NCBI GenBank assembly: GCA_001003475.1
Contig: LCPF01000001.1
Coordinates: 101,910 to 165,909 of the forward strand
Length of the DNA stretch: 64,000 bases
Direction: 5' to 3'
From: Candidatus Jorgensenbacteria bacterium GW2011_GWA1_48_11
Lineage (GTDB): Bacteria > Patescibacteriota > Minisyncoccia > UBA6257 > GWB1-50-10
Part shown: piece by piece, positions 12,220-13,116 of the stretch
How positions within the stretch are numbered: the stretch's first letter is position 1
How the letters are laid out: each line of letters opens with the position of its first letter
Position numbers and translations under genes: made by a program
The notes under the pieces: generated by a model
What the model saw: only the letters and a program-made list of their open reading frames with translations
Database searches by the model: none
What the model was told of the DNA's origin: nothing

Positions 12220-12876
12220 TTAACCGATTGAATTTTTTATGAATCTCTTGCATATGGGGATGGATGATTGCCAAAACTCCAGAGCTTTATTTTGATTGAA
12301 ATCAATCCCACTAAAAATGGTTTTGTTTTCAAGAGATTTTGAACTTATTCCATCACGTTCCAGAATGTCATTTATTTCGGCTTCTGAATTTTCCACAACA
12401 GGCGTTAAATATGAAATGCCATAATCTTTTAGAAACTCCTTTGTTAGAAGAATGAAATCAGCTTTCTGTTCAACGTATTTTTCTTTTTTTGCTTGATATC
12501 CCGAATATCCACTGGCAATTATTTTAATGTTATTTTTTAAACAGTAACAAATAGCTGTTGTGTGCACAGCTAAAGCTAGAGCAAGAGGGTAAACAACGTG
12601 TTCGATGTTTGTCTTCTCTATGGCTAATTTTCTTATCAAATAAGAGTCGTCTTGGAAAATTCTTTGTTTATCAATATTATTTGGAAACGCATTTAAAAGT
12701 TCACCGTGTCTAATTGCGGGAGCCGAATCACCTAGCGGTCCCGTGAGTTCTGAAGGGCCAGCCTCACACGTAAAAAGTATCACTCTATAACTTTTTTTTG
12801 CCAACAAAACGGCTGCTGCCGAAGAATCCTTCCCGCCAGAGTACAGGACAAGGATTTTTTTAAATTGTTCCTTCAT
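12220..12876 (-). CDS. PP-loop ATP pyrophosphatase superfamily protein (ATP_bind_4/DUF71 Dph6-like, or QueC-like); lies in a low-GC patch.
   Basis: N-terminal ILVLYSGGKDSS PP-loop. The gene is about 36% GC versus about 50% in the flanks. Confidence 0.6.
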   Translation of the reverse strand: MKEQFKKILVLYSGGKDSSAAAVLLAKKSYRVILFTCEAGPSELTGPLGDSAPAIRHGELLNAFPNNIDKQRIFQDDSYLIRKLAIEKTNIEHVVYPLALALAVHTTAICYCLKNNIKIIASGYSGYQAKKEKYVEQKADFILLTKEFLKDYGISYLTPVVENSEAEINDILERDGISSKSLENKTIFSGIDFNQNKALEFWQSSIPICKRFIKNSIG

Positions 12877-12954
12877 AAATCTATGTAACCACTAAATAGT
12901 TATTATGTACACACGAGCCCAACTAAAAAGCTGGTAATTACTGATTTTGAATCT

Positions 12955-13036
12955 ACTCCAGGAGCAAGATTCGAACTTAAAGAGTTCTATCTCCCGACGG
13001 GGGTGATAAAAATAACCCACATAGAATGGGGTTATT
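12955..13036 (-). other. tRNA-like 3' fragment (T-loop GTTCGAATC plus acceptor-like tail, no matching 5' acceptor strand) and a 13-bp hairpin.
   Basis: Reverse complement reads ...CTTTAAGTTCGAATCTTGCTCC. The stem gataaaaataaccc/gggttattttatc is at about 13004-13040. It is not foldable as a full tRNA. Confidence 0.3.
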
Positions 13037-13044
13037 TTATCCAG

Positions 13045-13116
13045 GGTGCCTAACCGGATTCGAACCGGTGCCAAAGCTGCCACAGAGCTTTGTGCTGCCG
13101 CTACACCATAGGCACC
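13045..13116 (-). tRNA. tRNA-His (anticodon GUG) with encoded G-1; CCA not encoded.
   Basis: Reverse complement GGTGCCTATGGTGTAGCGGCAGCACAAAGCTCTGTGGCAGCTTTGGCACCGGTTCGAATCCGGTTAGGCACC. Anticodon stem AAGCT/AGCTT, loop CTGTGGC, T-arm ACCGG-TTCGAAT-CCGGT. Confidence 0.8.

Follow-up and report, generated by a model that had tools for sequence, protein, structure and literature searches.

The window analysed here, a 64,000-nt stretch of DNA with an overall GC content of 49.9%, contains a gene for a PP-loop protein next to a tRNA-His gene. The results indicate that the gene was horizontally acquired and that its product is a candidate member of the YcfA family. The open reading frame (ORF) is intact, encodes 218 amino acids (aa) and places the motif YSGGKDSS at residues 12-19; an exact-sequence look-up identifies it as KKU91512.1, 'hypothetical protein UY23_C0001G0118', on a 635-kb contig. 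Read along the minus strand, the order is tRNA-His, a hairpin, a featureless stretch of 128 nt (13004-12877) and the PP-loop ORF. The downstream gene (12058-11213) encodes a 281-aa coiled-coil protein with an apparent N-terminal signal peptide, and the gene upstream of tRNA-His (13533-13144) encodes an RF-1-domain (ArfB-like) protein. The names that NCBI gives to proteins identical to the RF-1 and PP-loop proteins are those of Candidatus Jorgensenbacteria bacterium GW2011_GWA1_48_11.

The PP-loop gene has a GC content of 0.359 and a GC content at third codon positions (GC3) of 0.301, as compared with means of 0.502 (standard deviation, SD, 0.039) and 0.592 (SD 0.064), respectively, for the 58 ORFs of the window. 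It is the strongest outlier, lying ~4.5 SD below the GC3 mean (the next-lowest ORF has a GC3 of 0.44), and the lowest 600-nt stretch of the 64 kb is 12001-12600, with a GC content of 0.337 (mean 0.499, SD 0.038). The difference in GC content between gene and locus is -0.141 for the window copy and ranges from -0.06 to +0.015 in 14 other loci that carry a homologue (11 loci with the gene cassette described below, locus L002 and two members of a distant clade). An earlier note on this DNA, made from the sequence alone, had placed the gene at ~36% GC against ~50% for its flanks, and these values bear it out. The same note had described the flanking spacers as long and AT-rich; at 161 nt (GC 0.32) and 167 nt (GC 0.37), both are ordinary for this genome, in which spacers of at least 40 nt in the window have a median length of 207 nt and several others have a GC content of 0.31-0.36.

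Comparison with related genomes indicates that the gene is a local addition. When the proteins of the two flanking genes were looked up as exact sequences, ~20 contigs were retrieved, originating from several groundwater samples; the PP-loop gene is present in every retrieved contig that reaches the site, and no same-species empty site is among them. The fetched same-species loci that span 12000-13300 (10 of 10) are 100% identical to the window over 1301 nt, and look like one near-clonal population. In the closest relative found (L080; RF-1 protein 84% identical to that of the window), tRNA-His is followed at the site (2528-4260) by dCache_1 and prepilin-type N_methyl genes. In L081, a 729-kb scaffold, and the shorter L082, both with RF-1 proteins 70% identical to that of the window, the gene order is kept on both sides of the site (Pterin_4a, 207-aa membrane protein, RF-1 and tRNA-His on one side; 281-aa homologue, Cob_adeno_trans and Aminotran_5 on the other, continuing in L081 with SIMPL, Trypsin and ClpB), and the site itself holds a gene for an unrelated 217-aa membrane protein (L081, 8497-9465; L082, 1597-2565), together, in L082, with a PspC gene. 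The position past the tRNA-His terminator holds different genes in all three lineages compared and behaves as a variable, gene-turnover spot without a recognisable recombinase; among these three lineages, the PP-loop gene is specific to this species.

We conclude that the PP-loop gene was horizontally acquired, that is, that the transfer is real, because its composition is deviant and because the gene is absent from this site in two related lineages, as revealed by the synteny comparison that the earlier note had proposed. The nearest homologues are 73-77% identical at the amino acid level and 75% identical at the nucleotide level (coding region only), and lie on contigs of 33-36% GC, with which they agree in composition. 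The GC outlier, the absence of the gene from the site in relatives and the nearest homologues on low-GC contigs together support a low-GC Parcubacteria donor. The foreign segment comprises at most ~12059-12944, that is, ~0.9 kb with one ORF. The gene-proximal part of the upstream spacer (12877-12944) presumably arrived together with the gene and would be expected to contain its promoter and ribosome-binding site.

Profile searches with the protein return little beyond the PP-loop. The only Pfam matches are DUF7411 (35.6 bits, N-terminal 52 residues) and a sub-threshold match to QueC (20.5 bits vs. a gathering score of 22), with no match to PF01902 (ATP_bind_4) at E<=1. NCBIfam matches are confined to the PP-loop segment and lie far under the cut-offs (Dph6_archaeal, 11.7 vs. 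197.3 bits; TIGR00364, 17.4 vs. 150.3 bits), and PADLOC returns the QueC model only (15.5 bits, E 0.0035). Among 5.8 billion proteins searched, 104 homologues were found; in nearly all cases their length is 215-230 aa and their identity 50-77%, the named ones coming from Minisyncoccota, Kaiserbacteria, Yonathbacteria and other Patescibacteria; their alignment is strikingly conserved. The profile of this family, compared with all PDB sequences, matches chain N of 9kq6, which is YcfA of Erwinia amylovora, with an E value of 4.6e-19 over positions 5-189; the next PDB match (4.9e-5) covers the PP-loop only. The single sequence matches YcfA with an E value of 7.6e-11 over residues 6-190. An AlphaFold2 (AF2) model built on the alignment has a mean predicted local distance difference test score (pLDDT) of 91.6 and a predicted template-modelling (TM) score (pTM) of 0.90, and in a Foldseek search with this model the top 20 matches are YcfA chains, aligned over the full length with TM scores of 0.82-0.86 and root-mean-square deviations (rmsd) of 2.3-2.7 Å; TM scores for other families are 0.52-0.59 (QueC) and 0.4-0.6 (TtuA, MnmA and Cap9). 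By sequence and predicted fold, YcfA thus appears as the only strong relative of solved structure. The earlier note had offered ATP_bind_4/DUF71 (Dph6-like) or QueC-like enzymes as the family and had called for profile searches with PF01902, QueC, TilS and ThiI; models of Dph6, QueC, MnmA, TilS and ThiI give PP-loop-only or sub-threshold matches in Pfam and NCBIfam, and neither assignment holds. Dph6/ATP_bind_4 was rejected as a candidate, the PP-loop superfamily being all that is in common.

The kinship with YcfA, the enzyme of the first step of 6-thioguanine synthesis in the fire-blight bacterium E. amylovora, extends to the active site. YcfA activates GTP, GDP or GMP by adenylation at the C6 carbonyl and adds L-cysteine, and the pyridoxal phosphate (PLP) enzyme YcfC cleaves the resulting adduct to yield 6-thioguanine nucleotides (PMC12494993). 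Structures and mutagenesis assign YcfA Tyr128 and Gln129 to L-cysteine positioning and ATP, and Phe132, Glu134 and Gln135 to guanine stacking, to the general base and to substrate alignment, respectively (PMC12494993). Conservation of the equivalent residues, counted over 62 family sequences, is given in Table 1; in addition, S13, D17 and S18 are present in all 62. The residues that contact ATP (D, Q, E), guanine (aromatic, E, Q) and L-cysteine (R/K, Y, Q) in YcfA are conserved, and the window protein resembles YcfA (PDB 9kq6, 9kq7, 9kq9, 9kqd) in size and in its single-domain PP-loop fold (TM score 0.85). Only two cysteines, C112 and C209, are conserved, and a zinc site of the QueC type or an Fe-S site of the TtuA type is therefore excluded.

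Table 1. Active-site residues of YcfA, their equivalents in the window protein and their conservation in 62 family sequences
YcfA residue	Window residue	Conservation
Asp19	D17	62/62
Arg18	K16	R in 40, K in 22
Tyr128	Y127	60/62
Gln129	Q128	62/62
Phe132	Y134	62/62
Glu134	E136	62/62
Gln135	Q137	62/62
Glu183	E183	62/62
Lys169 (triphosphate anchor)	N169	K in 26, M in 23, I in 8
Lys180 (triphosphate anchor)	K180	N in 60/62; K in window protein only

Searched exhaustively with HMMER, 1.84 billion cluster representatives yield a small superfamily of 528 clusters at E<=1e-3, of which 164 reach E<=1e-10; the clade of the candidate phyla radiation (CPR) is essentially one 50%-identity cluster. Within this superfamily the PP-loop domain is fused to NUDIX domains (at the C-terminus in P0189, P0192, P0199 and P0206, at the N-terminus in P0236), to the 2-thiouracil desulfurase domain PF04463 (P0180 and P0186, both under the gathering score) and to a nucleoside 2-deoxyribosyltransferase-like domain (P0200). 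These fusions are Rosetta-stone hints at the handling of thio-nucleotides or thio-nucleobases by the superfamily. Known 6-thioguanine clusters pair the PP-loop enzyme with NUDIX proteins (PMC7994395), and the relatives of the window protein resemble the ycf/tgs clusters in being linked or fused to NUDIX hydrolases. The fusions and the NUDIX association point to small-molecule thio-nucleotide or thio-nucleobase chemistry, rather than to tRNA modification.

The gene neighbourhoods of the homologues, examined at 17 distinct loci including the window, reveal a second, recurrent association. At 12 of the 17, the PP-loop gene adjoins an HD_4 gene and a small alarmone synthetase (SAS) gene (eight loci) or a NUDIX gene and an SAS gene (four loci). 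In the eight (L001, L003, L007, L009, L026, L028, L029, L087), the HD_4 gene and then the RelA_SpoT-domain gene (152-162 aa) follow within a few nt downstream, on either strand; in the four (L030, L031, L032, L033), NUDIX takes the place of HD_4. For the HD_4 protein, the match is to small alarmone hydrolases of solved structure (7qoe, 8e-22), and for the RelA_SpoT (SAS) protein, to Rel synthetase domains. The five loci without the cassette are the window, L002, L024, L084 and L085. The L024 gene is truncated. L002 (3845-8867) has CYTH and HD genes upstream and genes for an Orn/Arg decarboxylase, an acetyltransferase and an EVE-domain protein downstream, and is an alternative context, again with nucleotide-polyphosphate enzymes. 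The L085 copy (Minisyncoccota) is solitary, with a gene GC content of 0.38 vs. 0.495, and the L084 copy (5001-6741), which is of the CPR type (53% identical) and lies in a metagenome-assembled genome (MAG) labelled Gemmatimonadetes, has a GC content of 0.42 between flanks of ~0.6 and an adjoining DDE transposase; it looks like either a cross-phylum transfer or a binning error. At least three solitary low-GC copies in higher-GC hosts (window, L084 and L085) are thus on record, and the single PP-loop gene therefore appears to move repeatedly between lineages. A scan of GTDB genomes with the single protein as query returned one locus.

A distant superfamily clade (31-35% identical) has a different neighbourhood: a conserved four-gene cluster shared by two contigs that are unrelated to each other, of 50% and 35% GC (L034, 5959-10626; L036, 5008-9437), in the order PP-loop protein, ~395-aa protein (with a match to KaiC-like ATPases in L036), ~440-aa HD-domain protein and N6_N4 DNA methylase. 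This cluster resembles a DNA-modification or defence-type module and is distinct from the CPR cassette.

The window copy itself stands apart from both the known and the newly seen clusters. Unlike YcfA clusters, it lacks both a neighbouring PLP C-S lyase (YcfC/TgsA) and an efflux gene, and no NUDIX partner of the YcfB/TgsC/TgsE type lies beside it; unlike this family, whose usual partners they are, 6-thioguanine clusters lack a small alarmone hydrolase and synthetase. A search for HD_4 or SAS gene remnants in the spacer 12059-12219 (tblastn with the cassette partner proteins) found none, and the only NUDIX gene that the same search found in the window, at ~39.4-39.6 kb, is unrelated. The canonical cysteine desulfurase gene 2.4 kb away is part of the native synteny, not of the insertion. 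The protein differs from YcfA in its ~25% identity, in its CPR hosts and in the triphosphate-anchoring lysines, which its family does not conserve (the window protein itself has N169 and K180). Enzymes of the YcfA/TgsB type, TgsB being the S. chromogenes counterpart of YcfA, are characterised by a two-layer heptameric assembly, in which Lys169 and Lys180 of YcfA anchor the GTP triphosphate from the neighbouring subunit, and by a 6-Cys-GTP adduct or 6-thioguanine nucleotides as products. By sequence, predicted fold and active-site residues the window protein belongs with the YcfA family, without the gene cluster that goes with it, and is best described as a putative divergent variant, its product being predicted from homology.

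Taken together, we assign a probability of about 60% to the reading that a Ca. Jorgensenbacteria genome of ~50% GC acquired an enzyme gene of the YcfA family, alone but for a short upstream region, from a low-GC donor among the Parcubacteria, at a variable position past the tRNA-His terminator. Several observations weigh against it. Identity to YcfA is only 24-26%, and the family as a whole has not kept the two lysines with which YcfA holds the GTP triphosphate, such that the phosphate part of the substrate may differ from that of YcfA. There is no HD_4, SAS or cassette-type NUDIX gene in the 64-kb window (tblastn with cassette partner proteins), and no YcfC/TgsA-like PLP enzyme adjoins the gene in any locus examined (17 in all), so that there is no evident complete pathway of thioamidation. 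No insertion mechanism is visible; no integrase is among the annotated genes within ~8 kb, and the window has no attachment (att)-type repeat. Finally, one contig of the same population, L008, has a frameshifting 55-bp deletion inside the gene (~12658-12712), given which the gene may be dispensable or decaying. L008 (1553 nt) is otherwise identical to window 12036-13260; its first 383 nt are unmatched, the other strand of this segment resembling, by eye, the N-terminus of histidyl-tRNA synthetase, and the junction, inside the RF-1 gene at window 13260, is an assembly chimera or a structural variant.

One alternative account of how the gene came to its site is that it is cargo of an integrase-mediated island that targeted tRNA-His and left a duplicate of its attachment site. 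This was in substance the proposal of the earlier note, which had seen, beside an intact tRNA-His (confirmed by ARAGORN and Rfam), a tRNA-like 3' fragment with a 13-bp hairpin, and had called the whole the classic footprint of an integrated element. As in tRNA-gene-associated islands, a gene of foreign composition lies by a tRNA, 167 nt away, and the site varies among related genomes, but the fragment dissolves on inspection. Rfam, even at E<=10, and ARAGORN, with introns allowed, with lowered thresholds and with the mitochondrial model, find no tRNA at 12880-13040, and its sole tRNA-like feature is the T-loop-like 9-mer GTTCGAATC (12968-12976), beyond which it is unlike the 3' end of tRNA-His. 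The 9-mer occurs twice in the window, the second copy being inside tRNA-His, as compared with 1.45 occurrences expected, and occurs at least twice in 43 of 100 shuffled sequences. Moreover, DNA of L080 aligns with the window at 94% identity from the tRNA through the hairpin to ~12985, and weakly on to ~12945, and has GGTTTGAGTATC at the position corresponding to window AAGTTCGAATC; by this alignment, weak at that point, the fragment is part of the native spacer, and no tRNA-like sequence is kept there in L080. We conclude that it is a chance motif. The hairpin is real, runs into TTATTTTTAT, is scored as a terminator-like site and is kept in L080; it belongs to tRNA-His as its terminator, not to a tRNA fragment. 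The further expectations of an island fare no better: neither the 3' end of tRNA-His nor the fragment recurs in the window at <=3 mismatches (the repeat check that the earlier note had proposed), no direct or inverted repeat flanks the gene beyond chance (11000-14500 searched) and, as that note had itself remarked, there is no integrase (none among the annotated genes, by their Pfam lists, within ~8 kb on either side). The 9-mer also lies between tRNA and cargo, the wrong side for an att remnant, which would be expected beyond the cargo, the foreign segment is a single gene in <=~890 bp, and tRNA-His and its terminator are left untouched. Of the footprint, the foreign gene by tRNA-His stands, on composition and absence in relatives, and the integrated element does not; a lineage-native gene of similar low GC at the same locus and a complete intron-bearing tRNA, which the earlier note had named as refuting its reading, were not found. 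We regard an integrase-borne island as very improbable.

A different account grants the transfer and denies the function: the gene would be a decaying or functionless hitch-hiker, that is, a fragment of the cassette transferred without its partners. The absence of the cassette partners from the window and the frameshift variant in the population are consistent with such a fate, as is the composition, which suggests a recent arrival because it has not been ameliorated. We consider this account unlikely, given an intact ORF in which every catalytic residue is present, the identity of 10 of 10 same-species loci spanning the region in several samples, and the independent recurrence of solitary low-GC copies (in the Minisyncoccota genome and the Gemmatimonadetes-labelled MAG), from which retention of the gene alone is therefore suggested. 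If the gene does function, its role could still be other than that of YcfA. The adjacency to tRNA-His would be meaningful if the product were a thiolation or modification enzyme for tRNA or other RNA, of the MnmA, TtuA or ThiI type; the N-terminal PP-loop weakly matches models of all three, and MnmA, TtuA/Ncs6 and ThiI begin with the same chemistry, in which a nucleobase carbonyl is adenylated and sulfur then substituted. These matches, however, span only ~the first 30-45 residues, and only the PP-loop segment can be aligned with the window protein. Those enzymes have modules for RNA binding, Fe-S or Zn and take their sulfur from persulfide or thiocarboxylate donors, whereas the 218-aa protein leaves no room for an additional RNA-binding domain, has none by Pfam and lacks an Fe-S/Zn cysteine cluster; ARAGORN finds no tRNA in L001, the one homologous locus scanned, and the guanine- and cysteine-binding residues conserved in the family are those of YcfA, a small-molecule enzyme. 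A tRNA-modifying role is thus distinctly unlikely. An identity as QueC (preQ0, or 7-cyano-7-deazaguanine, synthase) or as a QueC-like defence component (QatC, Cap9) is highly improbable. Some homologues are annotated '7-cyano-7-deazaguanine synthase', QueC models of Pfam and PADLOC give the weak matches cited above, QueC and Cap9 are among the structural matches, and QueC, QatC and Cap9 are likewise PP-loop ATPases of similar length acting on a purine-like substrate. Yet the scores for both PF06508 (20.5 vs. a gathering score of 22) and TIGR00364 fall short of their thresholds, and the structural matches to QueC, with rmsd >11 Å, are far inferior to those to YcfA. QueC binds zinc through a four-cysteine site, and with only C112 and C209 conserved such a site cannot form. 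No queD, queE or queF, QatABD or CD-NTase family is recognisable in the Pfam lists of the neighbours; the defence role that the earlier note had raised is left with PADLOC's weak match and without partner genes among the neighbours.

Table 2. Features at and near the PP-loop gene (positions in the window)
Feature	Positions	Strand	Basis and remarks
YcfA-like PP-loop (adenine-nucleotide alpha-hydrolase) gene	12220-12876	-	ORF; GC and GC3; PDB profile match; AF2 model; Foldseek
Codons for PP-loop SGGKDS (residues 13-18)	12823-12840	-	Lys16/Asp17 correspond to YcfA Arg18/Asp19 (pairwise alignment)
Codons for residues 127-137 (YQAKKEKYVEQ)	12466-12498	-	Equivalents of YcfA Tyr128/Gln129 and Phe132/Glu134/Gln135
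~55-bp segment deleted, with frameshift, in L008 (same population)	12658-12712	.	
Gene-proximal upstream spacer, GC 0.32	12877-12944	-	Without counterpart in L080 and L081 (alignment)
Native spacer 3' of tRNA-His terminator	12945-13004	-	Homology with L080; holds 9-mer GTTCGAATC at 12968-12976
Intrinsic-terminator-like hairpin and T-run, directly 3' of tRNA-His	13005-13041	-	Fold; terminator scan
tRNA-His (GTG)	13044-13115	-	ARAGORN; Rfam, 61 bits; G-1 encoded at 13116
Spacer from PP-loop stop codon to gene for 281-aa protein	12059-12219	-	GC 0.32
Cysteine desulfurase, Aminotran_5, SGSAC active-site cysteine	8656-9819	-	ORF; Pfam; syntenic in L081

Beyond these features, the tRNA-His gene is the first of five tRNA genes (His, Phe, Arg-TCT, Pro, Gly) that lie within 4.4 kb (13044-17457) with small genes between them, and the same five lie within ~5.3 kb in L081; a tmRNA gene occupies 37132-37491. 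The second-lowest GC3 among long ORFs (0.44) is that of a 388-aa ORF (28982-30148), the DNA of which resembles the tRNA-synt_1b gene of L007. A 1.1-kb stretch (1996-3094) has no ORF of >=90 aa and no Rfam match at gathering scores, its GC content falling to 0.38 at 2401-3000.

Returning to the reading of the gene as an acquired member of the YcfA family, we infer a reaction sequence for the enzyme by homology to YcfA. The SGGKDS loop would bind ATP, and the C6 carbonyl of a guanine nucleotide would be adenylated, with Glu136 as base, Tyr134 stacked on the guanine and Gln137 aligning the substrates, and with release of pyrophosphate. AMP would then give way to a thiol nucleophile, most likely an L-cysteine positioned by Lys16, Tyr127 and Gln128, to yield a 6-S-cysteinyl-guanine nucleotide, from which a C-S lyase or desulfurase encoded elsewhere would generate a 6-thioguanine nucleotide. 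Within the window, only the native Aminotran_5 protein could serve as the sulfur or C-S lyase partner, a role that could be proposed purely by conjecture; the window copy would act either by itself or together with partners whose genes lie elsewhere in the genome. Since an alarmone-gene cassette accompanies the gene in most CPR loci, the physiological substrate or product is probably tied to pools of GTP, GDP or (p)ppGpp.

A more far-reaching possibility, which we put forward tentatively and consider doubtful as a whole, is that the YcfA-like enzyme of Parcubacteria-type CPR organisms, highly conserved and not recognised before, modifies C6 of guanine nucleotides, and that what the alarmone cassette makes or processes is a modified alarmone or antimetabolite, of the 6-thio-GTP or 6-thio-(p)ppGpp type, that could act on the cell or on its host. 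In this proposal the PP-loop gene alone would have been transferred repeatedly, with a contig labelled as non-CPR among the recipients at least once, and the window copy would represent a recent transfer.

The locus illustrates that a low-GC gene by a tRNA can be a genuine transfer without an integrase-borne island, and that a T-loop-like 9-mer is no evidence for an attachment site. For the protein family, homologues of which are mis-annotated as QueC or MnmA, the link to YcfA suggests a specific, testable chemistry; the family is conserved across many CPR genomes. Alarmone synthetase and hydrolase partners are new for the YcfA family: full-text literature searches found no paper on a recurrent coupling of a YcfA-like gene to alarmone synthetase or hydrolase genes, none naming DUF7411 and none that mentions both small alarmone synthetases and the candidate phyla radiation. 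The window copy is a solitary and possibly dispensable import, and exposes a coherent, uncharacterised enzyme family. CPR organisms have a minimal nucleotide metabolism and depend on hosts. The coupling to alarmone genes suggests that the biology of episymbiont and host involves either a guanosine-polyphosphate signal in modified form or an antimetabolite of the thiopurine type.

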